From: Opitutales bacterium
Lineage (GTDB): Bacteria > Verrucomicrobiota > Verrucomicrobiia > Opitutales > PNEW01
Assembly (NCBI GenBank): GCA_965197745.1
Contig: CBDANS010000004.1
Coordinates: 128,001-192,000 of the forward strand
Reading direction: 5' to 3'
Length of the DNA: 64,000 nucleotides
In this document: piece after piece, positions 6,201-37,919 of the stretch
How the letters are laid out: each line of letters opens with the position of its first letter
Numbering within the stretch: position 1 is the first letter of the stretch
The notes under the pieces: model-generated
The model's input: only the letters and a program-made list of their open reading frames with translations
Databases searched by the model: none
Told to the model about the DNA's origin: nothing
Translations under genes and position numbers: made by a program

Positions 6201-6704
6201 TTACTGGATGAAGATTTCCAGGGTTTCGAAGGTATTATTATCGAGGAGAAAGTTTACATCGCTGAGAGACTCGGCAAGGACAAACAATTCGTTCATGGTG
6301 GGCTCATCCCTATCATCTATGACGAACTGCGAAGGGAGTAATACTTTTGTAGCATCCACCTGGCTGCCAATATCACCATCGGTCTGCTTAGAATTAACGA
6401 AATACAGGGTTAAGAAAGTAACAACGATAACTGCCGCAGCCGCTATACTTTGCAATGCGCTCAAGAAACGGGTCTTTTTTACGCTGCGAACTTTATTGAG
6501 CGTATCATCGATAAATTCGCTTGAGGTTGAAATGGGGTGGTCTGCCAGCAACTGGTCGAGCTTGTCATCATTTTCGATGAGCCCAATCTCATCCTTGAGG
6601 CGCTTCAACGTTCTCTCCACGAAATCGGGCGTAGCCTCAACTGACCGGGCAGCGAGCAATGCATCGATTTTATTGTCGTTGTAATCTGTATTCTGGTCAC
6701 TCAC
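6201..6704 (-). CDS. Putative membrane-bound anti-sigma factor
   Basis: Single TM segment (IAAAAVIVVTFLTLYFV); start overlaps the sigma stop codon; duplicated N-terminal D.LLA..FV/I..TL unit. Confidence 0.6.
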   Translation of the reverse strand: MSDQNTDYNDNKIDALLAARSVEATPDFVERTLKRLKDEIGLIENDDKLDQLLADHPISTSSEFIDDTLNKVRSVKKTRFLSALQSIAAAAVIVVTFLTLYFVNSKQTDGDIGSQVDATKVLLPSQFVIDDRDEPTMNELFVLAESLSDVNFLLDNNTFETLEIFIQ

Positions 6705-7240
6705 AGGAGATCCTTTAATTCATTTTTAAGGTACTGACGTGCGCGAAAGACCCAGGATTTTACCGCACTTACGGTTGCCTCCATAATTTCCGCAATTTCC
6801 AGATAACTTAATTCCTGTTGTTTCAGTAAAAGTATGGCTGTCCTTTGATTTTCCGGTAAGCCATATAAGGCAAGGGTGAAGGCTTCTTCAATTTCCATTA
6901 TATTGAGATTGTCTCGGCCCGAATCGATTGCCGTTAGTTCAGCGGGGTCAACCGTTTCGAGGGGTTTACGCTTCATGCGGCGGTATTCATTGATGAGCAG
7001 TCGTCTCGCGATATGGAATAGAAAAGTAGAAAATTTGGCTCTGGGTTGGTAGTTGGGGGCCGCTCGATAGAGGCGAATGAAAACCTGTTGAGCGAGGTCT
7101 TCTGACTGCTCAACCGATCCCAGCGAGCGGTAGAAAAAATTAATCAATGGGTTTTTCCATTTTTTAATGAGAATCGCTAATGAAGCTTCATTCCCGACCC
7201 CTATTTGCTGCATTAGAGCGATATCGGTATCAGCTCCCGT
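6701..7240 (-). CDS. ECF sigma-70 factor, 3' portion (5' end separated by the island; internal ATG at 7213)
   Basis: EDLAQQVFIRLY, FSTFLFHIARR, LSYLEIAEIM..VKSWVFRAR; frame stays open upstream as TGADTDIAL with no start codon and meets TAG at 7243-7241. Confidence 0.9.
   Translation of the reverse strand, partial: TGADTDIALMQQIGVGNEASLAILIKKWKNPLINFFYRSLGSVEQSEDLAQQVFIRLYRAAPNYQPRAKFSTFLFHIARRLLINEYRRMKRKPLETVDPAELTAIDSGRDNLNIMEIEEAFTLALYGLPENQRTAILLLKQQELSYLEIAEIMEATVSAVKSWVFRARQYLKNELKDLL
7224..7240. repeat. Left attachment site of island (attL-like)
   Basis: tcggtatcagctcccgt matches tcgatatcagcttccgt at 37882-37898 (15/17, core TATCAGCT); adjacent to the integrase. Confidence 0.75.
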
Positions 7241-7285
7241 CTATTATAATATATACCAATGGTTTATAATATTCCTTCCCAATTA

Positions 7286-7315
7286 TTGACAAAATTGCTT
7301 GCAAGTAAGCATGAT
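7286..7315 (+). promoter_or_regulatory. Putative sigma70 promoter of the integrase
   Basis: TTGACA-18 nt-CATGAT upstream of ATG 7332. Confidence 0.4.
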
Positions 7316-8588
7316 TGAGGCATTAGTGTACATGATGCAGGCAACTGAAGGAAAACATAAAAAATTTAGTCCCCTTAATTCCTGGGAACACCCCAAAAAA
7401 AGTTCTATCAAAGTAAGGGAAGTCATCAACCGTAACGCCGGTGACGATTACGGATTTTCCTACCAGGTCTTCATTCCCTCGAAGTTAGCCGGCAAGCGAA
7501 TCAGAAAACAGTTCAAGCATAAAGATGCCGCTTTTGCATGGGCAAAAGAACAACACGAACAATTGCTCCAATACGGGCAGCATCATTATAACCTGGACTA
7601 TAACCAATTAAGGGATGCATTCAATGCGCTCGAAAAACTTGAAGGTTTCGACATTACCCTCTCAGAGGCAGCGGAGTTTGCAAAGATCCATTTGCATCCC
7701 CTTGCCGGTGATATCTCAGTGTTGGAATTGACGGCAATAATGATTGAAGAAAAGGAGAAACAGAACCTGCGCGCCCGTTCCATTAATGATATCCGCTCAC
7801 GGATGGGAATCTTTTCAAGAAGCTTTGGGAGACGACTGGTCAAAGAGATTTCACAGTCGGAAATAGAGGAGTGGCTCAATACCCTCAGTGCCCTCTCGAT
7901 GAGGAGTATTATAAACTACCGCTTGTGCTTAAGCTCCTTTTTTAACTATGCCGTCACCCAGGGCTACCGGATCGATAATCCCGTGACGAGAATCCCTATG
8001 CCTAAAATAGACTGGAAGCCCCCTGTCATTCTCAAAGTCACTCAAGCGGAAGACTTGGTATTGCATGCGGCAAAGACCGATGAAGAAAAGGGGCTTTTGC
8101 CTGTGGTCGCATTAGGACTGTTCGCAGGTTTAAGGAGCACTGAAATCTCGCGGCTTGACTGGTCGGCGATCGACCTGGAGCGCAAGTTACTGACGGTTGG
8201 GCCACAGATAGCTAAGAAGCGCCAGTTAAGGGTGGTTGATCTAATGGACAATTGTGTGGCGTGGCTGCAGAGGTGTGATCAAAAGACAGGGCGTATATCA
8301 CCAACCAATTATTTTAAAAGCTTTGCAGAACTTACCAGACAAGCGGGCCTCGCCAAGTGGGGGGAAAAATACAGTAATGCGATGCGCCACAGCTTCGGCA
8401 GCTACTATTATGCGCTGACAAGTGATGCGGGTAAAACAGCAGCGATGCTGGGCCATAAATCGAACGACCAGGTGCTATTTGATCACTACCGAAGCCTGGT
8501 GGGCAGATCGGAGGGGGAAAAGTATTTCTCAATCCTACCGGCAGATAAAGAGCAAACGGTTGTCGCATTTAAACCTTTAGATAAGTAG
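7299..8588 (+). CDS. Site-specific tyrosine recombinase/integrase
   Basis: GLRSTEI (R), AKK (K), NAMRHSF, MLGH, HY (Tyr); N-terminal arm-binding-like and core-binding regions; likely start is ATG 7332. Confidence 0.92.
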   Translation: MQVSMIEALVYMMQATEGKHKKFSPLNSWEHPKKSSIKVREVINRNAGDDYGFSYQVFIPSKLAGKRIRKQFKHKDAAFAWAKEQHEQLLQYGQHHYNLDYNQLRDAFNALEKLEGFDITLSEAAEFAKIHLHPLAGDISVLELTAIMIEEKEKQNLRARSINDIRSRMGIFSRSFGRRLVKEISQSEIEEWLNTLSALSMRSIINYRLCLSSFFNYAVTQGYRIDNPVTRIPMPKIDWKPPVILKVTQAEDLVLHAAKTDEEKGLLPVVALGLFAGLRSTEISRLDWSAIDLERKLLTVGPQIAKKRQLRVVDLMDNCVAWLQRCDQKTGRISPTNYFKSFAELTRQAGLAKWGEKYSNAMRHSFGSYYYALTSDAGKTAAMLGHKSNDQVLFDHYRSLVGRSEGEKYFSILPADKEQTVVAFKPLDK

Positions 8589-8858
8589 CGCACGTGAGCT
8601 TATTAATCTACAATCCGTGCAAGTATAGAATAGCAGCGAGTGGGTTGAGCGGACTTTGGGTTGCACCGGTAGTGGGTCAGTTTGAAAAATATTGAGTTTG
8701 CACCGCGTCGATTTTCTGTCATAATCATTCGCTGTGAAAGAGAGAGAAGAACATTCCCGCGATGGCAAGCAGTTTGCCAAGTCTGTCGTGGAGTTGGATG
8801 CGGGCGAGCGAGAAATCAGTCTTAAGGTTACCCCAGTGCATAAGTTTGGGCAGAAGGG

Positions 8859-10145
8859 TGGTCGTGACCACGAAAACTGGTCCACTTGAAAAGTTAGTCT
8901 GGTCCAACTAGAAAGGACACAGACAATGAAAGGCAAAAGATACACGACCGAAGAGAAAATACGGATGCTGCGCCAGGCGGACAAAGGGAAAACGATCCTG
9001 GAAGCATGCCGCGAGAACAACATAAGCGAACAGACCTTCCACCGCTGGAAACGTGAGTTTGGGATGATTGATGTCAACCAGGCCAAGCGGATGAAGGAGC
9101 TCTTTGAAGGAGAACGCGCGGTTAAAACGGATGCTGGCGGACAAGATGCTGGGGATAGAGATCCTGCAGGAGACCCTCGAAAAAAAACTGTAAGCCCTGG
9201 GCACAAGCGGCAAGTGGCAGAGAGACTTGTGACTCGGGGCCAGTGTTCGATGCGAGCGGGGTGCCGGTACTTTCGGCTGCACCGTTCCACCTATGCGTAT
9301 AGGGCCAAGCATCCGGATGCCTGGCTAACGAAACTAAAAGCGGCAGTAAGGCGGTTATCACGGCAATACGCGAGGTGGGGCTATCCCAAGATCACGAAGC
9401 TGTTGAAGGACGAAGGCTGGCAGGTGGGTAAACGTCTCGTGCAAGGTCTGCGACGTGAACTGGGTCTGGCGATCCCCCCACGCAAGCCAAGACGCCGGCG
9501 CAGGGGTGTCTGCACCGGGCTACCGACAAAGGCCGAACATCCCGACCATGTTTGGACCTGGGATTTTATCCACGATAAGACGGTTCGCGGCGGCAGTCTA
9601 AAAATGCTGACCGTGCTCGATGAGTACACCCGCGAGTGCCGGGTGATCCATGTTGATCGCCATATCAATGCGGAAACGGTGCGCGGTATCATGCAAAAAC
9701 TGCTCGACCGGCATGGGCCGCCAAAATATATTCGTAGCGACAACGGTTCCGAGTTTATTGAAAGCCAATTGAGAGCCTGGCTAACTGCGATGAAAATCAA
9801 AACCCTCTATATCGAACCAGCAAGCCCTTGGCAGAACGGATACATTGAATCGTTCCATGCCCGTTTTCGCGAGGAGTGTTTAAACCGTGAACAGTTATGG
9901 ACTTTGACCGAAGCCCGCGTGGTCATCGAAGATTGGCGCTGGCTTTACAATCATGTCCGACCCCACCGCAGCCTCGGCAACATCACTCCACGGCACTTCA
10001 CTGAAAACCTCAATACCGAAGGCTCGGGCTCCATTCGGGCTACGCCCTCATTGCGCCCAAGCCTTGACTTCCTCTACCAACTTAACTTCAACATTAACCT
10101 CTCCAGACTAACTCTCCCGGTGGACCAGTTTGTGTAACCCGACCA
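8859..10145 (+). mobile_element. IS3-family (IS407-like) insertion sequence, copy 1
   Basis: Terminal IRs TGGTCGTGACCACGAAAACTGGTCCAC / GTGGACCAGTTTGTGTAACCCGACCA; flanks aaggg/gaggg (near-TSD). Confidence 0.92.
8926..10137 (+). CDS. IS3 transposase, OrfA N-terminus fused in frame to OrfB
   Basis: HTH N-terminus; WTWDF, SDNGSEF, PWQNGYIESF DDE motifs; RPHRSLG. Confidence 0.9.
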   Translation: MKGKRYTTEEKIRMLRQADKGKTILEACRENNISEQTFHRWKREFGMIDVNQAKRMKELFEGERAVKTDAGGQDAGDRDPAGDPRKKTVSPGHKRQVAERLVTRGQCSMRAGCRYFRLHRSTYAYRAKHPDAWLTKLKAAVRRLSRQYARWGYPKITKLLKDEGWQVGKRLVQGLRRELGLAIPPRKPRRRRRGVCTGLPTKAEHPDHVWTWDFIHDKTVRGGSLKMLTVLDEYTRECRVIHVDRHINAETVRGIMQKLLDRHGPPKYIRSDNGSEFIESQLRAWLTAMKIKTLYIEPASPWQNGYIESFHARFREECLNREQLWTLTEARVVIEDWRWLYNHVRPHRSLGNITPRHFTENLNTEGSGSIRATPSLRPSLDFLYQLNFNINLSRLTLPVDQFV

Positions 10146-10311: not shown

Positions 10312-11629
10312 TGGTCGTGACCACGAAAACTGGTACACTTGAAAAGTTAGTCTGGGTAACCTAGAAAGGACTCAGACAATGAAAGGCAAAAGATACACAA
10401 CTGAAGAGAAAATACGGATGCTGCGGCAGGCGGACAAAGGGAAAACGATCCTGGAAGCATGCCGCGAGAACAACATTAGCGAACAGACTTTCCACCGCTG
10501 GAAGCGTGAGTTTGGGATGATTGATGTCGACCAGGCCAAGCGGATGAAGGAACTCTTTGAAGGAGAACGCGCGGTTAAAACGGATGCTGGCGGACAAGAT
10601 GCTGGGGATAGAGATCCTGCAGGAGACCCTCGAAAAAAAACTGTAAGCCCTGGGCACAAGCGGCAAGTGGCAGAGAGACTTGTGGCTCGGGGCCAGTGTT
10701 CGATGCGAGCGGGGTGCCGGTACTTTCGGCTGCACCGTTCCACCTATGCGTATAAGGCGAAGCATCCGGATGCTTGGTTAATGAAACTGAAGGCGGCAGT
10801 AAGGCGGTTATCACGGCAATATGCCAGGTGGGGCTATCCGAAGATCACGAAGCTGTTGAAAGACGAAGGCTGGGAGGTGGGTAAACGTCTCGTGCAAGGT
10901 CTACGACGCGAACTGGGCTTGGCGATCCCCCAACGCAAGCCAAGACGTCGGGGCAGGGGTGTTTCCACCGGGCTGCCGACCAAGGCCGAACATCCCGGCC
11001 ATGTTTGGACCTGGGATTTTATCCACGATAAGACGGTCCGCGGTGGCAGTTTAAAAATGTTGACCGTGCTCGATGAGTACACCCGCGAGTGTCGAGTGAT
11101 CCATGTTGATCGCCATATCAATGCGGAAACGGTGCGCGGTATCATGCAAAAACTGCTTGCCCGTCATGGGCCGCCACAATATATTCGCAGTGACAACGGT
11201 TCCGTTCCGAGGAGCGAAGCGACGACATGCGAAGCCATTCATTGAAAAGGAATTGAGAGCCTGGCTAACTGCGATGAAAATCAAAACCCTCTATATCGAA
11301 CCAGGAAGCCCTTGGCAGAACGGATACATCGAATCGTTGCATGCCCGTTTTCGCGAGGAGTGTTTAAACCGTGAACAGCTATGGACTTTGACCGAAGCCC
11401 GCGTGGTGATCGAGGACTGGCGCTGGCTTTACAATAATGTCCGACCCCACCGCAGCCTCGGCAATATCACCCCACGGTGCTTCGCTGAAGACATTAATAC
11501 CGAAGGCTTGGGCTCCATTCGGGCTACGCCCTCATTGCGCCCAAGCCTTGACTTCCTCTACCAACTTAACTTCAACATTAACCTCTCCAGACTAACTCTC
11601 TCGGTGGACCAGTTTACGTAACCCGATCA
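10312..11629 (+). mobile_element. IS3-family insertion sequence, copy 2 (transposase frameshifted by a 31-nt insertion)
   Basis: Same IRs as copy 1; 1318 bp vs 1287 bp; ORFs 10379-11245 and 11103-11621. Confidence 0.92.
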
Positions 11630-11637: not shown

Positions 11638-12594
11638 ATGAGACGCTGTTTTGCAATAACTTTTTCAATGTTTTTTTCTTTATTGGCATTTTCGAGTAGT
11701 GATGATTCTCTGCATGATCAGGTAAAAGAAATAAACGCTCTTCCTATTATCGATGTCGGTGAGGAATTCAGTGAACGGTATATCCCGTTTCATATCCATG
11801 ACTCCAAAGTTTTTCGACCTCCTGACGAGAGAGGTAGATTCGTGGTCATGTCAACATTTCCGAATATACCCGATTTTATCTGCGATTCGTGGTGCTATGA
11901 ATCGGATGTGTATCTTATTGAGGCACGATCGCTCGATGGCAGCAGAATAGAACTCCGGCATCGTTCCCGTAAATATCCGAATGTTATCGTTATTACCACT
12001 GTTACGCCCGAACCCGGAGCATTGGAATTCTCCGCCCGTATGGAATTGGAAAAAGAGGATATCGGTAGTTTGCCTGAGAATAATGTAAATCTCAATCTGT
12101 GCTGGCAACTCAAACGTGCTCCGGGATTTTGCAGCAAACCGGATCCATACCCTGATTTTATAAAGCGATGTTTCATTTTCACCGAAAAAGGACGGGTTTT
12201 CCTCGATAAAACTGAACGCCGTAACCTTCCCAGCCGTGTTGCAGATGATTTCCGCAATAATCCGCCATGGGTACAGTCGTATGTTGACACCTGGAAGGAG
12301 ATTCCGGAGGTTTCTCCGACAGCCTGGCAAGACAACTACAGCCCGGACAAGTATGTAACAACGGTTATAGGAGCTGTTTCCAGAGATGGAAAATATCTTG
12401 CAGCATTGACCAATGACTCGGCAACTTACATGGAACAGGCATGGCATGACTGCATGCACAATAATCCGTTGTGGCTACCTGCCGTTGCACCTCCTTCTGA
12501 ACGCAGGTGGCGGTTGAAACTTTATGTGATGGAGAATGATCCCGATGCACTGCTGAAACGGGCACATAAGGATTTTCCCAACATTCATCGATAG
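11638..12594 (+). CDS. Hypothetical secreted protein (possible gene-cassette ORF)
   Basis: 318-aa ORF with signal peptide, followed by an attC-like site. Confidence 0.7.
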   Translation: MRRCFAITFSMFFSLLAFSSSDDSLHDQVKEINALPIIDVGEEFSERYIPFHIHDSKVFRPPDERGRFVVMSTFPNIPDFICDSWCYESDVYLIEARSLDGSRIELRHRSRKYPNVIVITTVTPEPGALEFSARMELEKEDIGSLPENNVNLNLCWQLKRAPGFCSKPDPYPDFIKRCFIFTEKGRVFLDKTERRNLPSRVADDFRNNPPWVQSYVDTWKEIPEVSPTAWQDNYSPDKYVTTVIGAVSRDGKYLAALTNDSATYMEQAWHDCMHNNPLWLPAVAPPSERRWRLKLYVMENDPDALLKRAHKDFPNIHR

Positions 12595-12645
12595 AATCAA
12601 ATCCAGTCTAAACCAAAGAAAGAAAAATAGCATATGAAAAGCTAT

Positions 12646-12708
12646 TTCGAACAACGGCATGCAGTCGGATGGCCGCTTCGCGACCCCCGCTGATGCCGAG
12701 CGTAAGCA
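12646..12708 (+). other. Degenerate integron attC-like recombination site
   Basis: ttcgAAC-aacgg-catgcag...gctgatg-ccgagc-GTAagca; ggcatGca/tgatgcc arms with extrahelical G; R' GTT changed to GTA. Confidence 0.6.
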
Positions 12709-12782
12709 GAATCCGCTTATTCTAAGCTGCAGCAAACAATCGAGGAGGATGACTGCAACCGCTAAGCGTGTATCAAATTAAT

Positions 12783-13265
12783 TCAGGCGATCCTTTCTCC
12801 GCGCCGGTCATACTCTCCCAACGGATCATAAAACCCCGGCCTATCGGTGAGCTTGATCCACACCCGCTGGGTTCTCTTCAGAACAATCCTTCCTAATCTC
12901 CTCAATAGTCCCTGACTACCATCGGGAAATTCAATAACGTATACCCAGTTATTAAGCGGGTCATCATTAACAATTACTGCTGAAATCCCAGGCCATTTTT
13001 TGTCGTCAGCGCGACCATCTTTTTGTTTTGAATGATCAAGGTGCTTTTCCATTAGCTGCTTTGGATTCAAGCCGTTCTTCCACAATAAGTTAACCTCTTT
13101 TATTAGCCTCTCGGGGAAACACTTTTCTTGCACGCGTAGGACCTTAATTCGGCCTCGTTCCCCCCTTATAGGTAACCCCGCTATGGCTTTTTCGTATGCT
13201 GAGTGCTCATACCAGCTGAAGTCGCTCTCATAGGTTACTGGACCAGAGTTGGTTACAGTTGACAT
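12783..13265 (-). CDS. Hypothetical protein
   Basis: 160-aa ORF, no recognised motif. Confidence 0.5.
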   Translation of the reverse strand: MSTVTNSGPVTYESDFSWYEHSAYEKAIAGLPIRGERGRIKVLRVQEKCFPERLIKEVNLLWKNGLNPKQLMEKHLDHSKQKDGRADDKKWPGISAVIVNDDPLNNWVYVIEFPDGSQGLLRRLGRIVLKRTQRVWIKLTDRPGFYDPLGEYDRRGERIA

Positions 13266-13591
13266 TAACTATTTTTAAAAAATGTTTTAATAGACTTAAT
13301 CGACAAAACTCAATTTAAGATATCATAGATTTTAAATTTATATAGTCCTCATTAACAATGACTTGATTATAATTTTTATCTCAAACTGAATTTCAAATAT
13401 TAGCGGTTTCTATTTTGCTGGTCTCAATTACACACAAATGGATTATTATCGTCATAAATTACACATGTAAATTTTGGTTAATAATATTCCTCTTTAAATT
13501 AATAAATGAAATAATAATATACCACATTGGGATCAATAATTGGCGGTCACAACATATATTGTAAGGAGTAAGGCCAGGGCTAGATAGGAAG

Positions 13592-13888
13592 ATGGAAAGT
13601 AACAATAAGCTGGTAATCTCGAGCCAGCGAATGGCCGAGCACGGGGAAGTTTATACTTCCAATAAGGAAGTGAATGCTATGCTTGATCTTGTTAAGCAAG
13701 AGACAGATCGTATCGATTCTCGCTTTTTTGAACCAGCATGCGGGAAAGGTAATTTTCTCGTTGAAGTATTGACCCGCAAGCTCGCGGTTGTAGCGAACCG
13801 CTATGGAAAGAGCCAGTATGAATATGAGCGTTATGCAGTTATAGCAGTTTCAAGTATCTATGGAATCGATATTCTGCATCTTTGGTGA
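13592..13888 (+). pseudogene. Truncated SAM-dependent DNA methyltransferase (RM-associated) N-terminus
   Basis: HGEVYT...EPACGKGNFL...SIYGIDI, then stop at 98 aa. Confidence 0.7.
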
Positions 13889-14051
13889 TCTATGGGATGA
13901 AAACCCAGCATGCTTTAATGGGCCAACACTCCAACTCAATATGGTTCAATAGATAGCCGTTGCCTCTAGAAATCGTTTTGATTAGAAGGTGATTCTAGAT
14001 ATACTCGAGAGTGTCAATTCACTTTATTCAATCAAGTAAGTATATTACACC

Positions 14052-15923
14052 ATGAAATTATTCTCAATTATATTTCTATCTGCCTATCTTGTCATTTCCA
14101 GTTTTGCTCAGGATCCAATTAATATTGGTTCACGTCTGGAGTTATTTGTCGATGATTATTTAATCGACGAGCTATCCGGTGGAGCCCGAATAATTTTACA
14201 TCATCCCACGCCGCAGGAGGTGGTGATTGTGCACGATGAACCCTGGGAAGGCAACGGCAGCCATAATCACAGTATCTTCCAAGACGGTGATCTTTATCGC
14301 TTATACTACTTGGGGTACCAGTATACCACCACGGATGGGAAATTAACCACCCCTCACCCTATTACCTATTGTTACGCGGAAAGTGACGACGGTATTCACT
14401 GGCGCAAACCCGAATTGGGTCTCATTGAGTTCAACGGCTCAAAGAAAAACAATATTTTGTGGGCCGACAACCAGACCGATCGGGAAGTGCCGTCCGCTAC
14501 CGCGGTAGTTATTTCCATTGTCGTAAAAGGTGACGGTCTCAAATATCAATGGTATATCGGCAAACCCGGTGACACTTCTAAGCCCATCGCAGGTGCAACC
14601 AGCAACACACTGAATACCGGCCCTCTCAATGAGAGCACAAACTTCTGGGTCCAGATAACAACGAAAGCAGGAGTTTATATTAACAGTGATACCTCGGTCA
14701 TCACCGTTACGGCTCCCTCCGTCCCTTCGGTCGATGAAGGTTCGCGTGATTCTGACAGCGCCGTGTTTGGTCCGATATTTCTCAATGCCGTCGACGCCGG
14801 ACATACCGCGGTGTTTAAAGACACAAATCCAGATGCACCACCAGATGCTCGTTACAAAGCTGTCCGCGTATCCGGTGATTTCGAGGGATTAATGGTTTTT
14901 AAGTCTGCTGATGGCATTCATTGGACTGCAATGACTCACAAAAAAATTATTTCAGAAAGCGAAATGAAAATTTTTGAACCATCGGTAAAAAGTGTTTATT
15001 TCGATTCGCAGAACCTAGCTTTCTGGGATGCTATTAACGGAGTTTACCGTCTCTACTTTCGCTACTGGCCGGATGACCGTCGTGACATCATGACGATGAC
15101 CTCGAAAGACTTTGTGAACTGGGTCGATCCCGTTCGACTCAAATACCCAGGCGCGCGTCCCGATCATTTATACACCAACCAGATTAAACCCTACTACCGG
15201 GCGCCTCACATTCTCATTGGCTTTCCGACCCGCTTTATCAATCGAGGATGGACGGAATCAACACGAGCACTGCCGGATTTATTAGAACGCCGTCAACGAG
15301 CGGGGCCGGATGTCGACACTGAAGGAAATGAGCATGAACTTCATTTCAGCAGCGCTGTTACCGAAGCTGTATTCATGACCAGCCGAGACGGGCAAACTTT
15401 CAAGCGATGGGATGAAGCGTTTCTGCGACCGGGCATCGAGAGAAAGGATAGTTGGGCTTACGGTAACCAGTACATTGCCTGGCAACTGGTTGAAACAAAG
15501 TCGAGGTTTGAAGACGCCCCGAATGAGTTGTCTCTCTATGCCACCGAGGGATATTGGACCGGCACCAGCACTCATCTTCGCCGCTATACCTTGCGCATCG
15601 ATGGATTCGTTTCGGTTAATGCCCCCCTCAGTGGCGGTGAACTGCTCACCAAACCGCTTGTTTTCGATGGTGACGAGATGGTAATTAATTTTTCGAGCTC
15701 CGCAGCGGGCGGCGTCCAGGTAGAAATCCAAGATGTATCGGGTGAACCCATAGAAGGGTTTACTCTGGCGGATTGTCTACCGGTATTCGGCGATTCCATC
15801 GAACGCAAAGTAAACTGGAATAATTCGCCCAACTTAGACAAGTTGTCAGGACAACCCGTCCGTTTACGTTTCGTTTGCAAAGACGCGGACCTCTATTCTT
15901 TTCGCTTTCGTCCTGCGCCGTAA
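14052..15923 (+). CDS. Secreted beta-propeller/glycoside hydrolase-like protein with inserted Ig-like domain
   Basis: Signal peptide; ELFVDDYLI, YAESDDGIHWRKP, SADGIHW and SRDGQTF Asp-box-like repeats; LRIDGFVS; internal YQWY.G..GDTS.PIAGAT Ig module. Confidence 0.75.
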   Translation: MKLFSIIFLSAYLVISSFAQDPINIGSRLELFVDDYLIDELSGGARIILHHPTPQEVVIVHDEPWEGNGSHNHSIFQDGDLYRLYYLGYQYTTTDGKLTTPHPITYCYAESDDGIHWRKPELGLIEFNGSKKNNILWADNQTDREVPSATAVVISIVVKGDGLKYQWYIGKPGDTSKPIAGATSNTLNTGPLNESTNFWVQITTKAGVYINSDTSVITVTAPSVPSVDEGSRDSDSAVFGPIFLNAVDAGHTAVFKDTNPDAPPDARYKAVRVSGDFEGLMVFKSADGIHWTAMTHKKIISESEMKIFEPSVKSVYFDSQNLAFWDAINGVYRLYFRYWPDDRRDIMTMTSKDFVNWVDPVRLKYPGARPDHLYTNQIKPYYRAPHILIGFPTRFINRGWTESTRALPDLLERRQRAGPDVDTEGNEHELHFSSAVTEAVFMTSRDGQTFKRWDEAFLRPGIERKDSWAYGNQYIAWQLVETKSRFEDAPNELSLYATEGYWTGTSTHLRRYTLRIDGFVSVNAPLSGGELLTKPLVFDGDEMVINFSSSAAGGVQVEIQDVSGEPIEGFTLADCLPVFGDSIERKVNWNNSPNLDKLSGQPVRLRFVCKDADLYSFRFRPAP

Positions 15924-16440: not shown

Positions 16441-16510
16441 CCTGGGTATACCCCCACTCCTAAAAGCGCCGTCACGGCTTTACAGCACTCGAGAATGCTA
16501 AGCTGTAAAT

Positions 16511-17245: not shown

Positions 17246-17346
17246 CTACAAGAGGCACAAGAAAGAAAATTGAAACTCAGGAACTCAGGATTTAAAATTG
17301 ATGAACCGCAGAGACGCAGAGATCGCGGAGATTATAATTTGGAATA

Positions 17347-30160: not shown

Positions 30161-31414
30161 TTAGAATTTAATATCAGTCTGCAGCCAGAACTTCTGCCGA
30201 TCTGCAAAACCATTTTCACCGTTAAAATAACTGTATTTCGCCAGTATTGACCAGTGCTTATTCATCTTTCTGGAGATGACAGCATCTATCTCATAGCCGT
30301 AGTCCTGACTACCTTCCTCAGCTGTGAACCAATGGCCAGTAATTTTAGCTGGCAGATCTTTCATTAAAGAAATTCCTGCCATCAAATAAATATCTTCCAG
30401 CCCTTGAGATGGGGTAGAGAGAAAAACATCACTCCATCCATTAAATTTATGCAAAGTGGCTAATGGGGTACGAAAACCCTGGTTGTTGTCGCTACCCAAA
30501 AGTTCGTAACCGGCACCCAATGTCAAACACTTATAGGTTGATGCGGTAACATGAAAATAATTGGCTTCGTAATTTGATGGATTATTGTTGGCATCTGTCT
30601 GATGTGCAAACTCGACATGCCATTTGAGGATCATTTCATTTTCGCTTTTGCGCGAACCTGAATACTGCATTCCATAGGTATTGCTTGAATTAGCTGCAGC
30701 ATTATTGAGATCCAGAAGATAGGCATAAAGGGTAAGTTTAGTGGATTTCTGGCCCTTGTAATCCATTTTGATCAAATGTGAACTGGATTTAAATTCCCGT
30801 TGCGCGGGTTGGGGAGCATCGTCTCCAAAAATACGATGCACCGTGTCGATATAACCATAATAAAAAATAAAATCGGGTATACTTTGATTTGTTACCGTGA
30901 CCGCATCATAGGTCTGTTCATTTTGACGGAATCCGACATTGCCGATAAAACGGGCATTATCCAAGATGATCCGTTGTCGACCAATTATTGTTGTCGTATC
31001 AAATCCTGTAATACTAACTTGAGCTCGATTTAATTCAGTTCCTTCAGGATCGGCAATTACCGTTCGGCCTGGTTGTGGGTAGGGATTAAAATTACCCTCC
31101 GATCCAATCACCCGAATATCCTCCATTTCTATCAAGGCAGAAATTCCGTTAAAACTACCAGTTTTAAAGCCCAACCGCGTACGTAACGTTACAGCGTTAG
31201 AATCATCACGGCCATCCTGATCGGCAGTTTCATAGCGCGGGCGGACATTTAGAATAATTTTGCTCTCCTTGAGCAAAGGGGGCATCTCTTTTTGTAAAAT
31301 TCGCCCTAATTCAAGTCCTTCTTGTCCCTCACAATAAAACACGAACAGGTTGAAAAGTCCGGTGGTAATTAAAAGCCTGTTAAGCCACATACATTTTAAT
31401 GCGATCAGTTTCAT
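30161..31414 (-). CDS. Alginate export family outer-membrane porin
   Basis: RPRYE, TLRTRLG, GRQRI.LDN.RFIGNVGFRQNEQTYD, FRTPLATLHKFNGWSD, terminal F. Confidence 0.85.
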   Translation of the reverse strand: MKLIALKCMWLNRLLITTGLFNLFVFYCEGQEGLELGRILQKEMPPLLKESKIILNVRPRYETADQDGRDDSNAVTLRTRLGFKTGSFNGISALIEMEDIRVIGSEGNFNPYPQPGRTVIADPEGTELNRAQVSITGFDTTTIIGRQRIILDNARFIGNVGFRQNEQTYDAVTVTNQSIPDFIFYYGYIDTVHRIFGDDAPQPAQREFKSSSHLIKMDYKGQKSTKLTLYAYLLDLNNAAANSSNTYGMQYSGSRKSENEMILKWHVEFAHQTDANNNPSNYEANYFHVTASTYKCLTLGAGYELLGSDNNQGFRTPLATLHKFNGWSDVFLSTPSQGLEDIYLMAGISLMKDLPAKITGHWFTAEEGSQDYGYEIDAVISRKMNKHWSILAKYSYFNGENGFADRQKFWLQTDIKF

Positions 31415-31490
31415 TGAGGATCATATTCTTTAATAACGTTATTTTCTCAAAAATAGCGAAATACTGCTGTGCATGGTTTCATTTATATAT

Positions 31491-31950
31491 TGACCTGCCC
31501 CCGTTTACTGTACCAGAGCCAGTGTTAGATCCGGCAGGATGGTAAGAGTTTTGATTTGATTAGTCCAGAGAACTGTAATCTTTGGATATTATAATTGAGC
31601 CGCCAGGATTCAACTTTTTTTTATTCTTTAACTTCAGTCGATATGCAAAATATCTCGGTGTTAAGAAGTTCATGGTTGGACCCCGTTTTTCGTACCAATT
31701 TTTAAGTGAGAGAGTTACCGGGTGTGACCTGCTCCCGTTTACTGTACCAGAGCCAGTGTTAGTTCCGGCAGGGTGGTATGGGTTTAAATTTGCTTAGACA
31801 TGGCTCTGTGGGCGTATTCGGCCGGAGGCCGATAGCCCAGAGAACTGTGTGGTCTTTGAGTATTATAATCAAGCTGTAAAAGGCTTCAAGTTTTTCTTTC
31901 ACTTCAGCCGGTATACATAATATTTCGGTGTTAAGAAATTCATCTCATAA
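31491..31950 (-). mobile_element. Two tandem decayed IS3 3'-end remnants
   Basis: TGACCTGCYCCCGTTTACTGTACCAGAGCCAGTGTTAG at 31491 and 31725; minus strand retains EFLNTEI and YNTQRPHSSLGYRPP-like residues. Confidence 0.65.
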
Positions 31951-31977
31951 GCGTCAATGGACGGCTAACAGCTCTGC

Positions 31978-32991
31978 CTACTGCATATTCAAGTAATATT
32001 CCAGTAAGGTCTCCGTTCCTCCTGGTATTAGGGCCTGTCGGTTGTTCGTGGTCGGAGTATAGCCGTGTTCACGCTCGAAGCTATCGGGGAGTCCATCTTT
32101 ATTGACATCTTCAAAAAGTGGGTTGCTTTTCGTTATACGTAGATTTCCTAAAGTCGTATAAAATTCAGACCCCAGGGTGATGATTATATTATTTTCTCCG
32201 GCAACGTAGTCTAAGTCCGCGAGCCATAGTATTTCATAAATATAAAGATCCAAATAAAGATCCCAAATACCCGCTTCGCTATCCAAACGTAAGGTAAGCG
32301 TCTTCGGTACTTTTGCTTTCCCGCCTGGCTCAAGCCCAAAATAGATACCCGTGTTAATCCATTCGTCACCGTCCAGGACTCTGATGTATCCGCTCGGGAT
32401 ATTGTCCTCATTGGCATACCATTGAAAATCTAAAACCGCTCCGGCAACATTCAATCTGGTGGGATTCTCGGAATTTACGCTCACCGATGGAATGATGGTA
32501 AAAGAGCAGAAAATTACTTCCTCCTCCAAAGGCACTTCTATTTGCACTTCTCCTATCCCGCTCATGATTACAGATCTGAGGGCCCCCTGCTCATCATTCG
32601 CTTTCGCATCCACCACCGCGTTACCCGTAGTCGTAACAGCACCCGGTAAAATTCTGTCTGAGGATCCACTCGCTGTTACCTCTATCGGCTTTGGCGTCGA
32701 GAACGCGCTCCAACTCCCCGTCGAACCTGTGCGATAACTAACCCATAGATAGGGAATCTTCGCCGTTATTTCCTCCGGGTCGTCAGACCAGGAAGGAGGA
32801 AAGTATTCATCTCGATCCCTCGCACTCGCAGGAATGGGCGGGCGGATTGAAGTGACCGTGCGGCGATAAATATATTCGATTCCATCGCCGTCTTCATTAA
32901 CATTGGCGGTAATATCAGTACTTTGAGCATTAGCTAATTGGTATACTGAAAATATGAATATACAAAGACTGGATCCCCATTGTGCTTTCAT
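31978..32991 (-). CDS. Hypothetical secreted protein with C-terminal Ca-binding-like DxNxDGLPD motif
   Basis: Signal peptide; DVNKDGLPDSFE. Confidence 0.65.
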   Translation of the reverse strand: MKAQWGSSLCIFIFSVYQLANAQSTDITANVNEDGDGIEYIYRRTVTSIRPPIPASARDRDEYFPPSWSDDPEEITAKIPYLWVSYRTGSTGSWSAFSTPKPIEVTASGSSDRILPGAVTTTGNAVVDAKANDEQGALRSVIMSGIGEVQIEVPLEEEVIFCSFTIIPSVSVNSENPTRLNVAGAVLDFQWYANEDNIPSGYIRVLDGDEWINTGIYFGLEPGGKAKVPKTLTLRLDSEAGIWDLYLDLYIYEILWLADLDYVAGENNIIITLGSEFYTTLGNLRITKSNPLFEDVNKDGLPDSFEREHGYTPTTNNRQALIPGGTETLLEYYLNMQ

Positions 32992-33274
32992 TATTTTTAC
33001 TCTCTTTTGTTTAGAAATAGCATTAATTTCTATCCAATATCTCCCATATGAATATTCATAATCGTTGAAAATCGCAATTTTCTAATATTTCGAAGGAAAT
33101 TGCTGCTTCCAATATAATGTGGCAATCTCTTCTTTCGTTACTTGATGATTAAATCGGCAGTATTTAATAATTATTGCTGAATTTCCCTCTGCCTTGGTTT
33201 TTATGAGTTTATACCTTAAAGCTCTAATTATCAAGTGTTTTACCTTTTAGGGAAGGATTAACTGGTGCATGAAG

Positions 33275-33350
33275 TGATCGTACCCCTTTATTCGTACCAA
33301 TTTAAGTGAGAGAGTTACCGTGTATTTGACCTGCTCCCATTTACTGTACC
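33275..33350. repeat. IS3-end-derived ~75-bp repeat (also at ~31677-31750)
   Basis: cgtaccaatttaagtgagagagttaccg followed by tgacctgctccc.tttactgtacc. Confidence 0.65.
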
Positions 33351-33662
33351 TGATAATGCCTTTTGAAACTGCCGAGGGCCAAGATGAATTAAGTGCCTAT
33401 CAGATTATGGATATGCAAATGGCTCAGGAACTTGAAGCAGCGCTAAATGAAGGACTGAGGAAAAAACCGGTAGATGAAATTGGCCTGCAAGCTTTAAAAT
33501 CAAGAGTTCAGGCCATTAGAAATAGCGTTCTCCCTCAGGAGATGCATGCACCTGTTGTGCCCCCTGAAAGAACACCGAAACTGGAACCGACTGAGTAACG
33601 CAAGCTGCAGGTGAAACCAACATCGCTATGATCCGTAGAGGGCACAGACAAAAGACATTCCA

Positions 33663-34817
33663 ATGCTCATAGCAGATCAAAATGAAGCTCATGGCGTTAC
33701 CCTTGAGGAGTATATAGCACTTCCCGCGGATGAGAAGAAACAGGTGTTGCGTGAGGGGCCAGAAAAAGTTCTCGATGACCTCTCGATGCTGCTTGAACTG
33801 CACACGATCAGCCTGCGAGATGAATCCTCGATGATAGTTCGGCTAATGGCAGCAGAATCTTCAGGCAGGCTTATGCACGAGCTTCAATGGGACAAAGCGA
33901 GGAATGTCTCCCTCCTCCCTGAATTTTCCCATGAAGATTCAGCCGCGTTCCAAGAGGCCCTGGTTGCCGCGTTATGGGATGATCATAAACAAGTTCGTGG
34001 ATCTGCTGTGGACGCCTTACCCCTTTTAGCACCCCCGAATCCACAGATTGAAGCGATTATTATAGAGGCCTATGAAGAAAACAGAATCCTAGTAGCCGAA
34101 CCCTACGAAAGTATGGCGCAAGTTGGATTCAACTCCGACCGTTTTGTGGCATTAGCCCTGAAACTGGTGCAGTCGAAATATACTTATTTTATAGCAGCCA
34201 AAGTCCTGGCTAAGTTCACACAGGAGGTTGCCTTGGATACGCTCATTGAATTGGCGGGATCAAAGGAAGTGCCCGCCAGCATGCGAGATGCTGCAGTGGA
34301 GGCATTGGCGGCTTATGGTCGGAGAGCGATGCGCGCCAAACCTGTGCTCGAAAGAATAATCGAGGATCACCCCAAACGTGGGGAAACACGGAAATATACT
34401 TACAAGGTTCCAGCTAGCGAGCTGCAACCCGGCCAAAGCTTTATTAGGTTCTTAGTAGACTACGAAACCATGAAATCTGACAGTATTGGTGTCACTGCAG
34501 CCCGCACGCTGGAGGCGATTACCTTAGACAAGCCCAAAGTCGCTAGTCATTACATGAATCCGAAAAAATTAGTTCAATTATGGCCTTTAGCTCTGCCTGA
34601 AGAGGCTCAGGTACTGAATGCGAGTTCCACTGAGTTGGATAAGCCGAATAAGCTCCCCTCTCAGATAGCCTATAAACAAGAACGATCCAAGGAAGAGCCT
34701 GAAACTGGTTACAGGGCGGATTCTCCAGAAAATCTACGGGAGCATACCTGGATATGGCTGGGAGATTTAGTTCTGGTGATAATTGCAGTTTGGATAGTGC
34801 TCAAGCCCCGCAGGTGA
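33663..34817 (+). CDS. HEAT-repeat-like protein with C-terminal membrane anchor
   Basis: VRGSAVDAL, MRDAAVEALAAYG..A.PVL repeats; terminal hydrophobic segment followed by KPRR. Confidence 0.65.
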   Translation: MLIADQNEAHGVTLEEYIALPADEKKQVLREGPEKVLDDLSMLLELHTISLRDESSMIVRLMAAESSGRLMHELQWDKARNVSLLPEFSHEDSAAFQEALVAALWDDHKQVRGSAVDALPLLAPPNPQIEAIIIEAYEENRILVAEPYESMAQVGFNSDRFVALALKLVQSKYTYFIAAKVLAKFTQEVALDTLIELAGSKEVPASMRDAAVEALAAYGRRAMRAKPVLERIIEDHPKRGETRKYTYKVPASELQPGQSFIRFLVDYETMKSDSIGVTAARTLEAITLDKPKVASHYMNPKKLVQLWPLALPEEAQVLNASSTELDKPNKLPSQIAYKQERSKEEPETGYRADSPENLREHTWIWLGDLVLVIIAVWIVLKPRR

Positions 34818-35231
34818 GAAATGCAGTTGCTGTCAATCAAGTTTCAATCGCATTAACCGGAAGAATCGACAACAAGCGATCTATAACGCAGATGAGAACC
34901 TCATAACAGCAGGGAATAGAAGCTGGGACATGAACGGATTGCACAGCCTCGAGCACTAGTCCTACTGGACGATGCTGGGCATGTAAGTAGAGGATGTTCG
35001 ACCCTTTATCCGGGCAGCGCAGTCAGACGGTAATCCGGTGGAGGGAACTGTCCTATTACTTTTTGATATACCTGTAAATCTCACCCATCCTTTCTATCCC
35101 TTAATGCATCAGGGGGAGCGAATTTAAATCAACACTTCCAATTGCGTCCAATAACGGCTTGCCCATCCCAGGTTCCAAGCTACTGTCCTCCGCAGCAGCA
35201 ATCCGAGTAATCCCTTCAATCAATGTATACC

Positions 35232-36146
35232 ATGAAAAAAAGACAAAAAGTTACCATCATCCTCTTGTTGGCTATTATGGTTCTTGGAGGAGCGTTTCTA
35301 TCTATCAGGACTCTCAATCGAAAGGATTTGCGGGTGAAGGTAGGCACGGGCGAATTCCCCCTTATTTTTGAAGATGGCGATTATGAGGATCTCGACAGGG
35401 CCAGGTTAATCTGGACGGTCAATAACCTCTATGAATCTGTTTATGATTACGAGGTTATTCCGACAGATTCTTATAAATTTTACGTGGGTGGACGTGTAGT
35501 GGAATTAAAATTCTTTCTACATGAATTAGGAAGGAGATATGGTCCTAAGATTTCATATGAAATTGGCTACTACGGCATTGTTGAAGAGGATGGAATTCAT
35601 CACCTTATTTTGACTCGGGAGTTCATCGAAGCGTTTATCGAGGCCTCATCAAAGTATGTGGAAGTCACCGATGAATTAAACAACTTCATCGACCGGCTCA
35701 ATCGGATAAATTCGGCAGAGATCGATAACCTAACTGAAGCCGAGGTCGATTCCATGTACTATATCGATCCTAATATCAATGAAGACGATTCTGATCTAGA
35801 GGATAGGAGGGAAGGTCTAAGAGTATTTACAGTAGATAAGCACTACCAATCTACCAATGTTTTATGGATTGAAGAGAGCATAGAAGTAGGGCGTTACTTG
35901 TTTGGAGAGAATGCAAAACCTATGATTGTTGGGGAAGCGATCTTTTATACGAATAAGGACAATCTTCCATGGTGGTATTCGGATGATACCACGGATTTTA
36001 ATGCGCTTTCCCCACCGTTGAACTTTGATTCGCGCATACATACCGATCCGGATACAGAACCCTTTGTTTGGGTGCCTGCTGACAAGTGCGCATTCCTCTA
36101 CGTTAATGGACAATGGAAGATAGCAGATATCATGCCGGGAACATAA
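35232..36146 (+). CDS. Hypothetical membrane-anchored acidic protein
   Basis: N-terminal TM after MKKRQK; ORF of about 304 aa. Confidence 0.65.
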   Translation: MKKRQKVTIILLLAIMVLGGAFLSIRTLNRKDLRVKVGTGEFPLIFEDGDYEDLDRARLIWTVNNLYESVYDYEVIPTDSYKFYVGGRVVELKFFLHELGRRYGPKISYEIGYYGIVEEDGIHHLILTREFIEAFIEASSKYVEVTDELNNFIDRLNRINSAEIDNLTEAEVDSMYYIDPNINEDDSDLEDRREGLRVFTVDKHYQSTNVLWIEESIEVGRYLFGENAKPMIVGEAIFYTNKDNLPWWYSDDTTDFNALSPPLNFDSRIHTDPDTEPFVWVPADKCAFLYVNGQWKIADIMPGT

Positions 36147-37742
36147 TTCGATCGACTGGGATGAAGCAGTTGACCGAGTAAGCTAGCAAAGACAGCCATG
36201 GTTAAGGAAGAGAAGCTAAAGGATGATGGGATTAATCATGTTTAATCTACGTGCTTCAGTATTGAGTCGGCATTCACCAACCTTACAAAGTATATCCATT
36301 ATTTTGTATGGTTGATACTATTGCAATTTCCAGTAACCCCGACGCTTGAATGGAACCTGGCTTTCTGCTTGATCTCGCGAATAACCTCCCATGTCAATCA
36401 GAGCGTTTCAGTTATGCTTGAGCAAATTCCGGGTTGTACATAATATCTCGTCGCTCTGAAGTGGCAGGACATTTTGGATCCCTGCATTACCTGTGGATAG
36501 CGTCTCACTTCGCCTGCTAACTCATGTTCCTCTTGCGAAGGGAGGACAGAGACTGCCCATTCATCGACTTCACCGCTCTCGAACAGTTGGTTGCGTACCT
36601 CGCCGGGAAAGCCTGGATGGATAGTGTATCGGCTGCCTCAGAATTTTCAGCCAACGAGAGAATCTTTAGCAGATCAATGGGTGAGCCCGGTTCCCTCAGC
36701 CATTGCAACCTCTTTCTCTTTTATATCAGCGATCGAAGTGACCTCATGCTCCATCCCGCTGGTATATCTTGCTGTTAATTGCTACCTTTGCGGGTATGTG
36801 CAATCTGTTGGTAAGGCATAGAGTTTGTCCTTGAGCGAAGGCAGTTTGGATTGTTGATAGAGCCAACGTCGATAGCCTCCGCATATGCGCCGATGAAAAC
36901 TTCAGGGTTCTACGGTTCAGTCTTAAAACAACCAGCCAAAGCACCCCTGGCACGAGTAGGACTGAAATGATATTAACTTGAGACTTCATCATCATTCTGT
37001 ACTTGTCCTAATCCTGGTCGGGCGGAGAGCTTTTTTAAGCATTCTTTGCTGTCTTTTGGTTGTGCTTTCCGGAAAGCCAGTAGCAAGCGTGAAGTCGGCT
37101 CCATCGCCATCAGCGCCATTGCCATAAGGGGTGCGCAGTGAAGTCCAGTAACAGCTAACAAGGATCATTTGAAGAACGGATCCTCGGTCCCGTTTACCCT
37201 ATGAATACATTCCGTAGATATCTCTCCAGGAGAAACTCGTGGAAGAGGCAACAGTGTAACCTCGGAGTTGACTAATCCCTGCTGGAGTCTGCCGTACTGC
37301 ATAAACGGTGAGTGTGGGTTAGCTAGCAAACTCATTGCTTGCAGTTGTGAGCAACATCTCGGTTTTGGGGCGTACAGCTTCATACTCAAATACAGATTAC
37401 TTTTTCTAATGCAAATACCTACCCCGCTAGCGGCAAAGGAAGAGCCAAAAGAGAAATTTACATACGGGAATGTATTAAATAAAAAGAACCCTCAAACCAT
37501 CAGTTAAATAATGCATTTTTTACCTGTAACCCGAACAACTGATCTGAAACCTGAGTTTCTGTGAATCTGCTTCTTCAGGAAATCTGGAGGTGTCATTAGA
37601 ACTAGAGGTCCAGTTGCGATTGGACTTGTCTCTACTGGGCGCATAAATTTATTGTTTTTCATCACAAGGGTCACTTAATGGACATTAAATCTATTCAAAA
37701 ATTCTTGGCCGATTCCTGGCTGAAGATCACCAAAAAAGTATG

Positions 37743-37762
37743 ATTCCTGCCCATTCCTGCCA
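37743..37762. repeat. Tandem 10-bp repeats, candidate integrase arm-type sites
   Basis: ATTCCTGCCC ATTCCTGCCA; related ATTCCTTCCC at 7271-7280. Confidence 0.5.
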
Positions 37763-37881
37763 AACATTTTGAAGCAACGCCGGGAAATCAAAGGAAAACA
37801 TAAGTTATTATTGAATCGCTATTTAAGTGTAACTCATTATTATTAAATAACTTCTGATATTTTACTAATTCCAGTTCATAG

Positions 37882-37898
37882 TCGATATCAGCTTCCGT
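37882..37898. repeat. Right attachment site of island (attR-like)
   Basis: tcgatatcagcttccgt, see 7224-7240. Confidence 0.75.
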
Positions 37899-37919
37899 TG
37901 AGCACTCTTTCTCAGCCAT
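37887..37919 (-). CDS. 5' fragment (MAEKECSTEAD) of the split ECF sigma gene
   Basis: ATG at 37919; joins in frame through the att core to TDIALMQQIG at 7228. Confidence 0.7.

Follow-up and report, generated by a model that had tools for sequence, protein, structure and literature searches.

Several bacterial genes are known to be split by integrated elements and made whole again when these excise. The skin elements in sigK of Bacillus subtilis (skinBs) and C. difficile (skinCd) use large serine recombinases (SpoIVCA and CD1231), and skinCd has its own directionality factor (PMC5025042). SpyCI islands in the 5´ end of mutL in Streptococcus pyogenes and relatives excise precisely in early-log phase, which restores expression, replicate as episomes and reintegrate, and the mutL site is common to the islands of several species (PMC4129442). 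In active lysogeny, seen with the comK prophage of Listeria monocytogenes and the hlb-converting Sa3int phages of Staphylococcus aureus, reversible excision of complete or near-complete prophages with their own regulatory circuits acts as a switch (PMC7397523, PMC6597384). SPbeta in spsM and gin in gerE are excised in the sporulating mother cells of Firmicutes, with a serine-type integrase in the case of SPbeta (PMC4191935, PMC5595907, PMC5499854). Here we describe a 30,658-bp island that carries a tyrosine integrase and splits the gene of an extracytoplasmic function (ECF) sigma factor in a marine Opitutales bacterium (assembly GCA_965197745.1, contig CBDANS010000004.1). The whole stretch analysed, 64,000 nucleotides (nt), is called the window, and positions refer to it unless a contig is named; the genome carrying it is G000, and G001 and G002 are the two nearest genomes, from the same family. 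In our judgement the split is most likely an incidental and probably recent insertion, by a member of a multi-copy family of integrase islands, into the 5´ end of the sigma gene, which uncoupled the sigma operon from its promoter.

The locus shares features with each of the described systems. As in skin, a decayed element with a recombinase gene next to a junction splits a sigma factor gene that a precise crossover could, judged from the sequence, rejoin in frame. Here, however, the recombinase is of the tyrosine type, the search for a directionality factor found none, and the gene is that of an ECF (group 4) sigma factor, hit at codon 11/12 in a verrucomicrobial host. As in SpyCI, insertion at the start of a gene would uncouple this gene and the downstream genes of its operon from the promoter, whereas no replication function was found and the relatives of the integrase use other sites. 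The interruption of a gene by an integrase-bearing element is shared with active lysogeny, but no phage genes were found in the island; a split coding frame that precise excision would reconstitute is shared with SPbeta and gin. In kind, the island is a tyrosine-integrase genomic island, together with its sister elements in G000, G001 and G002: an integrase at one end, a short identical attachment (att) overlap, variable cargo and accumulating insertion sequences (IS). Ordinary islands of this class usually occupy the 3´ end of a gene, for tRNA or otherwise, and rebuild it. This family, by contrast, lands in coding sequences, IS3 transposase genes and a palindromic repeat, with an overlap that varies by copy. 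An ECF sigma gene split by an intervening element was not described among the matches listed in a full-text literature search, which is a weak statement.

An insertion in an ECF sigma factor gene

What stands at 6701-7213 (minus strand) is the body of the sigma gene alone: the first 11 codons, with the start codon, and the promoter are missing from it, and this 5´ part, including a promoter-like region, is found at 37887-38018, 30,658 bp from the body. Upstream of ATG 7213 the minus-strand frame reads through nine codons, T-G-A-D-T-D-I-A-L, and is closed by TAG 7243, with no ATG, GTG or TTG in the sigma frame between the two. The codons for GAD overlap the att core and its flank, and ACG and TAG lie within the att flank and island end. 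On the other side, ATG 37919 (minus strand) opens MAEKECSTEAD, which continues into island sequence (IDYELE...) and stops after 43 residues. The two junctions share a repeat, TCGGTATCAGCTCCCGT (7224-7240) and TCGATATCAGCTTCCGT (37882-37898), identical at 15 of 17 positions, and within it an identical 8-bp core, TATCAGCT, at 7228-7235 and 37886-37893, again spaced by 30,658 bp. Both sites have inverted half-sites around this short identical overlap, as do the att sites of tyrosine recombinases. The codon phase is the same at both junctions, because core positions 2-4 form the GAT codon in each, and a crossover within the core would join the two halves into a 186-residue frame. The first-pass annotation, made from the sequence alone, had described frames, junctions, core, phase and spacing, and its description is accurate in every detail. 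The 186-residue product it foresaw has the length of the orthologue P0005, and the rebuilt N-terminus, which it had called normal for an ECF sigma factor, resembles the MSE[RK]EHSMHED-TDIAL-MQQIG of G001 and G002. When both 120-nt junction neighbourhoods were shuffled, a 15/17 match was reached in 3 of 300 trials (p ~0.01 for the repeat alone). By itself the repeat is only moderately unlikely, and the case therefore rests on comparison with relatives.

A sigma orthologue is present in 22 of 40 related genomes (E <= 1e-20), with 83% identity in G001 and 82% in G002. In all 19 relatives in which the locus was examined, the frame extends 5´ of the conserved Met through an acidic stretch, and the N-terminus of G001 and G002 is uninterrupted, reading M-S-E-[RK]-E-H-S-M-H-E-D-T-D-I-A-L before MQQIG. 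The displaced residues of the window agree with the MSEREHSMHED of G001 at 5 of 11 residues in the same position, and TDIAL at 5 of 5. In the protein collection, P0005 (186 residues) begins at the equivalent Met and P0002 (85% identical) shares the N-terminal pattern; a near-identical intact protein was not found there, the best match besides the window's own being 85% identical. DNA homology of the right flank of the window to G001 and G002 ends at the GATA of the core, and that of the left flank begins there. As the first-pass annotation had anticipated, sigma is directly divergent from nrdB-nrdA in relatives, in 6 of 6 large loci, and nrdB lies within 1.5 kb of it in 9 of 19 small ones. None of the outcomes that it had named as fatal to its reading was observed: orthologues that start at MQQIG or have an unrelated N-terminus, or relatives without the sigma-nrdB adjacency. 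Fifteen island protein queries gave no match at the six large loci. The nearest relatives settle the point: by this comparison, the disruption of the sigma gene is a genuine integrase-borne insertion.

Occupancy of the site was surveyed in 401 Opitutales genomes, one per species; 164 had a sigma match, and 150 matches were listed. Among these, an open frame shorter than 184 residues was seen only in G000 (179 residues), G187 (170 residues) and G387 (at a contig end), and the sigma site is apparently occupied in 1 of the 150 orthologues listed, that of G000 alone. The short frame of G187 reflects a +1 frameshift, with nrdB still adjacent. At G187:C102:80570-80730 (73% identity) the extension MPEEDHFNGAGQDEAL is one base out of frame with the conserved Met, which is why the open frame has only 170 residues; either the sequencing is in error here, or the protein is a naturally short form that begins at the conserved Met.

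The sigma body matches, besides the domains given in Table 1, PF07638 and the sigma70-ECF model TIGR02937 (86.3 bits against a cutoff of 42.9). It has the size and domains of an ECF (group 4) sigma factor, with sigma-2 and sigma-4 regions only, both complete within the 170 residues, and no conserved region is therefore truncated. The next open reading frame (ORF) of the operon, at 6201-6704, had no family match in profile searches and is syntenic in G001 and G002 at 38-41% identity; its position suggests the role of an anti-sigma factor. In 10 of 19 relatives a motif of the ECF-promoter type, [ACT]AAC[AT]T-(13-16 nt)-G[AT]TT, precedes the conserved Met by about 145 nt; an eleventh relative has it at -114, and it also stands in the corresponding position of the window, on the side of the island that faces nrdB. 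Shuffles gave a mean of 0.165 of 20, against 11 of 20 regions with the motif. Because the pattern was derived from the same sequences, the motif is only suggestive of a promoter. Further along the leader, in the window (37930-38020, minus strand) and in the loci L002-L020, conserved blocks follow the motif, TGTGA[AG]C soon after it and CTTGGCA[GA]G about 60 nt on, which may be leader structure or a second promoter element. A promoter consensus scan of the minus strand at 6600-7500 returned no sigma-70-type site facing the sigma gene.

This arrangement is best explained as follows. A 30,658-bp site-specific island inserted between codons 11 and 12 of the ECF sigma gene, most likely when its own tyrosine integrase recombined the element site (arm CATAGTCGA, overlap TATCAGCT, arm CCCGTCTATT) with a similar stretch of that gene. 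The insertion spared the coding body with sigma-2 and sigma-4 and parted it, along with the presumably co-transcribed anti-sigma candidate and DUF3106 genes, from the 5´ codons and the promoter-like region, and the displaced start and promoter-like region now lie 30.7 kb off, beside nrdB. That the operon is cut from its native promoter had been proposed in the first-pass annotation, and the promoter-like motif left on the nrdB side agrees with it. Since the body is separated from its start codon, its first 11 codons and the ECF-type promoter, we infer that the operon of sigma, anti-sigma candidate and DUF3106 genes is most likely silenced or strongly turned down. The hit on sigma is most likely incidental, fairly recent and variable between strains.

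The integrase and its element family

The integrase gene beside the left site, which the first-pass annotation took to be intact, is full length and has its motif positions conserved in 8 of 8 copies. It matches PF00589 (E 7.6e-12, 45.8 bits against a cutoff of 27.1) and phrog_1 integrase (E 9e-32), and is XerC/XerD-like by NCBIfam and PDB, the XerC and XerD models matching at E ~5e-13, below their equivalog cutoffs. AGLRSTE, AKKRQLR, NAMRHSF, LGHKS and DHYRS are kept in all eight aligned copies. The first catalytic Arg was placed by alignment to XerD, and the other motif positions (Lys, Arg-His, His, Tyr) are presumably those of the general family pattern; NAMRHSF has Asn where many tyrosine recombinases carry the first His.

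The ends of the element are defined by its copies. Nine close copies can be aligned inward of CCCGTCT[AT]T and diverge outside it, and the 14 further copies of the right end lose homology at 37884-37890 (37898 for the most divergent of them), in every case at the arm ...CCGTTCATAGTCG[GA]T. Besides that of the island, G000 has four integrase copies with 79-86% identity and one with 50%; its close loci are C7:944733-946079, 164668-166014, 1087486-1088832 and 1065044-1066388, plus window 7236-8588. G002 has one relative at 91% and G001 one at 85%, and none stands beside the sigma gene. The first-pass annotation had asked whether homologous integrases sit in ECF sigma genes; the nearest copies lie elsewhere. 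With 15 right ends to five close integrases in G000, many copies must be remnants or tandem pieces. Only one left arm and one right arm occur in the window, which thus contains a single element.

Sister ends have the same arm-overlap-arm design, with an overlap of 8-9 bp that is identical at both ends of an element and differs between elements. The overlap TCTGCCTC occurs at C7:150512 and at C7:166014, 15.5 kb apart, and position and orientation suggest that these ends form one element. In G002, a 24.9-kb element with the closest integrase (91%; G002:C2:416376-441289, loci L047 and L055) and the overlap TAGAGATCA interrupts a lipoprotein-like gene some 85 codons into its frame; the two junctions are identical over 14 bp, and excision would restore the frame. 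Four sister left ends and several right ends lie in IS3 transposase genes. Family members thus sit in varied targets, and the sigma gene is one target among several.

The site within the IS3 transposase gene, AACGGATACATCGAATCGTT..., is the att site of four sister integrase elements and of several right ends, a case of islands integrating into insertion sequences; it occurs in the window at 9835-9860 and 11319-11345 and 41 times in G000. Three sister elements have as their att site a palindromic repeat of about 80 nt with a perfect 8-bp inverted repeat, CGAAGACG ... CGTCTTCG, at its end, and about 12 empty copies of it are present in G000, e.g. at C7:1034020-1034130, C7:997450-997560 and C7:1024070-1024180. 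A small, semi-conserved peptide, MKNNKFMRPVETS...PDFP.K, can be read in the right end (37504-37674, minus strand), into which the stranded sigma promoter would read. We rejected it as a product: conservation at the DNA level explains it equally well, stops and frameshifts vary between copies, and no frame is open throughout the seven copies compared. By a strict listing, none of the 15 right ends in the G000 assembly is followed by a left arm, the arrangement of a free attP.

In two sister elements (G000 C7:947885-948157 and C7:1062914-1063162), the integrase gene is followed about 1.4 kb on by the gene of a 91-residue HTH_17/MerR protein that matches a PHROGs excisionase (E 3e-9). A tblastn search of the window with this protein gave no match at E 1e-3, a 194-residue winged-helix-like ORF of two sister elements is absent from the window, and 0 of 66 island ORFs of 55-140 residues matched an excisionase family, which leaves room for a novel small factor. 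As the integrase and both att sites are intact, precise excision is mechanistically possible, and the island may still be excisable. For excision, it would either depend on a directionality factor supplied by a sister element or do without one.

Cargo and decay of the island

The features of the locus are collected in Table 1. The island cargo is decayed, with three IS3 copies and a number of gene fragments among accessory genes that look whole (PhyH, GH31, PHP and the two Ig-like proteins). The IS3 copies combine HTH_Tnp_1 and rve (DDE) domains within about 1.3 kb and are multicopy, as expected of this family. Copy 1 cuts the conserved segment next to the integrase, and the minus-strand ORF of that segment in sister elements is matched in the window only over residues 12-75 of 117. 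It has 39 full-length matches in G000, including the other two copies of the island. Relative to the common form, copy 1 lacks about 30 nt and has one fused ORF in place of two frames; at least three G000 copies (C7:1901264, 1352652, 408025) are 99.8-100% identical to it. The release-factor and MmeI-type fragments are debris of housekeeping or defence genes. Families of phage structural, conjugation, replication or partition proteins were not found among the island ORFs in profile and PHROGs searches, and libraries of defence and phage proteins gave only weak cyclase, methylase-fragment and repeat matches for the unknown cargo ORFs.

Two repeats run through the cargo. The C-terminal 230-270 residues or so (24837-25651) of a 753-residue immunoglobulin-like (Ig-like) protein recur in truncated form 4 kb on, at 28806-29500, and this region has about 70 matches across G000 at about 72% DNA identity. 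At 31487-31961 lie two tandem units of a dispersed repeat of 235-290 nt, with a dozen or more copies in G000; at several loci it adjoins the right end of the element, e.g. at C7:988094-988354 beside 988380-988580.

Table 1. Features of the split sigma locus and of the island, in window coordinates
Feature	Positions	Strand	Basis and remarks
DUF3106 protein gene, last of operon	5511..6167	minus	PF11304, E 2.3e-9; syntenic in G001/G002, 56-57% identity
Candidate anti-sigma factor, 167 residues	6201..6704	minus	one hydrophobic segment; start overlaps sigma stop
ECF sigma body, 170 residues from conserved Met	6701..7213	minus	PF04542 (residues 15-82), PF08281 (residues 111-161)
In-frame remnant T-G-A-D-T-D-I-A-L	7214..7243	minus	TDIAL native
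attL	7224..7240		chromosomal half-site TCGG, overlap TATCAGCT (7228-7235), element half-site CCCGT; repeat comparison
Conserved left element end	7236..7331		9-copy alignment; promoter-like site TTGACA-18-CATGAT (7286-7315, plus), consensus match only
Tyrosine integrase, 418 residues from ATG 7332 (429 from TTG 7299)	7332..8588	plus	PF00589
Conserved integrase-adjacent segment	8632..8858		alignment to sister copies; cut at 8858/8859 by IS3 insertion
IS3 copy 1	8859..10145	plus	rve, rve_3, HTH_Tnp_1; single fused 403-residue transposase ORF 8926-10137
IS3 copy 2, two ORFs	10312..11629	plus	100% identical to at least 6 other genome copies
Cargo block	11638..26340		unknown ORFs, two large Ig-like secreted proteins, PhyH dioxygenase, GH31 glycosidase, PHP protein; profile searches
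MmeI-type methylase fragment, 98 residues	13592-13888		profile match
Nucleotide cyclase fragment	16718-17245		profile match
GFO/IDH/MocA oxidoreductase fragment	18646-19233		profile match
Sulfatase-like C-terminal (SGSH_C) fragment	19423-19767		profile match
IS3 copy 3, inverted	26343..27660	minus	profile and copy matches
Release-factor fragment, 92 residues	27917-28195		profile match (PCRF, E 4e-25)
Remnant of repeated C-terminal domain	28806-29500		genome repeat matches
Remnant of second IS3-like element	29489-30058		genome repeat matches
Further cargo	30161..37434		porin-like 30161-31414, unknown 31978-32991, HEAT-repeat 33663-34817, unknown 35223-36146
Conserved right element end	37435..37885		14 further G000 copies; arm CCAGTTCATAGTCGA at its end
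attR	37882..37898		element half-site TCGA, overlap TATCAGCT (37886-37893), chromosomal half-site TCCGT; repeat comparison, flank homology
Displaced first 11 sigma codons, MAEKECSTEAD	37887..37919	minus	head of 43-residue hybrid ORF ending at 37788
Stranded native ECF-type promoter-like motif, CAACTTTT-N13-GATTAA	37992..38018	minus	motif conserved in relatives
nrdB, nrdA	38701-39783, 39870-43136	plus	PF00268, PF02867; synteny; conserved divergent neighbours

Apparent strain variation and competing explanations

Public samples were consulted as Logan contigs, in which rare variants are dropped and the lack of loose ends at 7232-7240 in samples X1 and X2 is uninformative. In two studies (X1; X2 and X6), short-read contigs run through the left junction with no difference from the window: record 1 of X1 covers 3500-7568, record 9 of X2 covers 3500-7293, and record 21 of X6 covers 6562-7308. 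A contig of 13,132 nt from a third study (X7) matches 3500-7240 with 16 differences and one gap (99.6% identity), and its remaining 6,636 nt do not match the window stretch compared. A match that stops at 7240 fits an unoccupied site, because chromosome and island share the att repeat up to that base, and X7 thus appears to contain a strain with an empty sigma site. X7 also has a depth-2 contig of 303 nt identical to the 3´ end of the integrase gene (8397-8699), possibly from an island-carrying minority or from a copy elsewhere. No genome repeats were found at 1-2500 or 42500-47000 of the window, near the ends of the X2 and X7 contigs. The exact 29-mer at 7207-7235 had no match in JGI metagenome contigs, and the organism is apparently outside that collection. 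The departure of X7 at the att site probably reflects strain variation, which fits a recent insertion or occasional excision and is silent on regulation. The first-pass annotation had named a fixed insertional knockout as its alternative to a switch. Of this, the knockout is the better reading, and fixation is doubtful, because a near-identical strain in X7 seems to depart from the window at the att site.

One alternative, which the first-pass annotation had put forward as a skin-like switch, is that the host keeps the island as an on/off device. On a signal the integrase would excise it, sigma would be rejoined to its own promoter and the ECF regulon turned on, with the element lost or, as in SpyCI and active lysogeny, reintegrating. 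The identical 8-bp overlap, the precise restoration of the frame by excision and an intact integrase with a promoter-like site are consistent with such a device, as are undamaged operon ORFs, the coexistence of occupied and apparently unoccupied forms in public samples, and excisionase-like genes available in trans. Switching would also be sharpened by the nature of the target, a regulator whose promoter is probably self-activated, and there are precedents in skin in sigK (PMC5025042) and SpyCI in the 5´ end of mutL (PMC4129442). Against it stand the failure to find in the island either a directionality factor or a function for replication or maintenance as an episome, the IS insertions and gene debris, with one IS cutting the conserved module next to the integrase, and the close relatives of the integrase at unrelated sites, IS elements among them. 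SpyCI-type islands share the mutL site across species (PMC4129442), whereas the sigma site is apparently occupied in 1 of 150 orthologues among the matches listed. Taken together, the lack of an excisionase-like gene, the decayed and IS-ridden island, the varied targets of the integrase and this single occupied site leave the regulated switch unsupported, and we consider it very unlikely. The same small likelihood attaches to a domesticated form of the device, in which the probably self-activated promoter reads into the conserved right arm and excision, set off by a signal or by the excisionase of a sister element, lets the rebuilt sigma gene lock itself on. The Opitutales are not known to form a terminally differentiated cell type that could afford an irreversible loss of the element.

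The insertion could also have been tolerated, with a 170-residue sigma factor made from ATG 7213 through an outward promoter in the left end of the island, so that autoregulation is lost and the protein kept. Both sigma domains lie inside this ORF, Met 7213 is conserved in 19 of 19 relatives, 170-residue forms are annotated in other lineages (P0008, P0048, P0063), and G187, frameshifted just 5´ of this Met, has retained the ORF. An AT-rich TTGTCA-17-TTATAA was spotted by eye on the minus strand of the left end; the promoter scan of 6600-7500, however, gave no minus-strand site, and ATG 7213 has no Shine-Dalgarno-like sequence at the spacing usual for one. At the protein level, relatives conserve the acidic D/E-D-x-x-L stretch that precedes the Met, which places the true start upstream, and we regard rewired expression of this kind as unlikely. 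That the island was misjoined into the sigma gene at the repeat during assembly is scarcely credible: the many IS copies and element ends of the genome could lead an assembly astray, but the left junction is crossed, with no difference, by independent short-read contigs of two studies, both ends have the arm-overlap-arm structure specific to the family, and the junctions share no repeats other than the 17-bp att sites. Several points nevertheless weigh against an incidental insertion that silenced the operon. The 170-residue body keeps both sigma domains and starts at a Met conserved in 19 of 19 relatives, where some gene callers also place the start (P0008, 170 residues). The X7 contig could fit excision as well as a site that was never occupied, and no second species of the window's genus was among the 401 genomes surveyed. 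Two excisionase-like genes elsewhere in G000 might act in trans, and an intact integrase, attL and attR with undamaged operon frames are also expected of a maintained switch. A recent insertion accounts for these intact parts equally well, and recent is what we infer the incidental insertion to be.

In conclusion, the locus is a clean and fully delimited case of an integrative island that separates a regulator from its promoter, in the IS-rich genome of an uncultured marine member of the Opitutales. Because the exact att sites are known, excision is testable by a single polymerase chain reaction or by read mapping. A switch, if true, would be the first tyrosine-integrase, ECF-sigma counterpart of skin and SpyCI, outside the Firmicutes and cyanobacteria and in an uncultured marine verrucomicrobium. 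The multi-copy integrase family with its diversified 8-9-bp overlap offers a natural series on how tyrosine integrases change targets. The operon of sigma, anti-sigma candidate and DUF3106 genes, divergent from nrdBA, is conserved across much of the order and unstudied, and natural strains with and without the insertion would be a ready-made knock-down pair for the sigma regulon.

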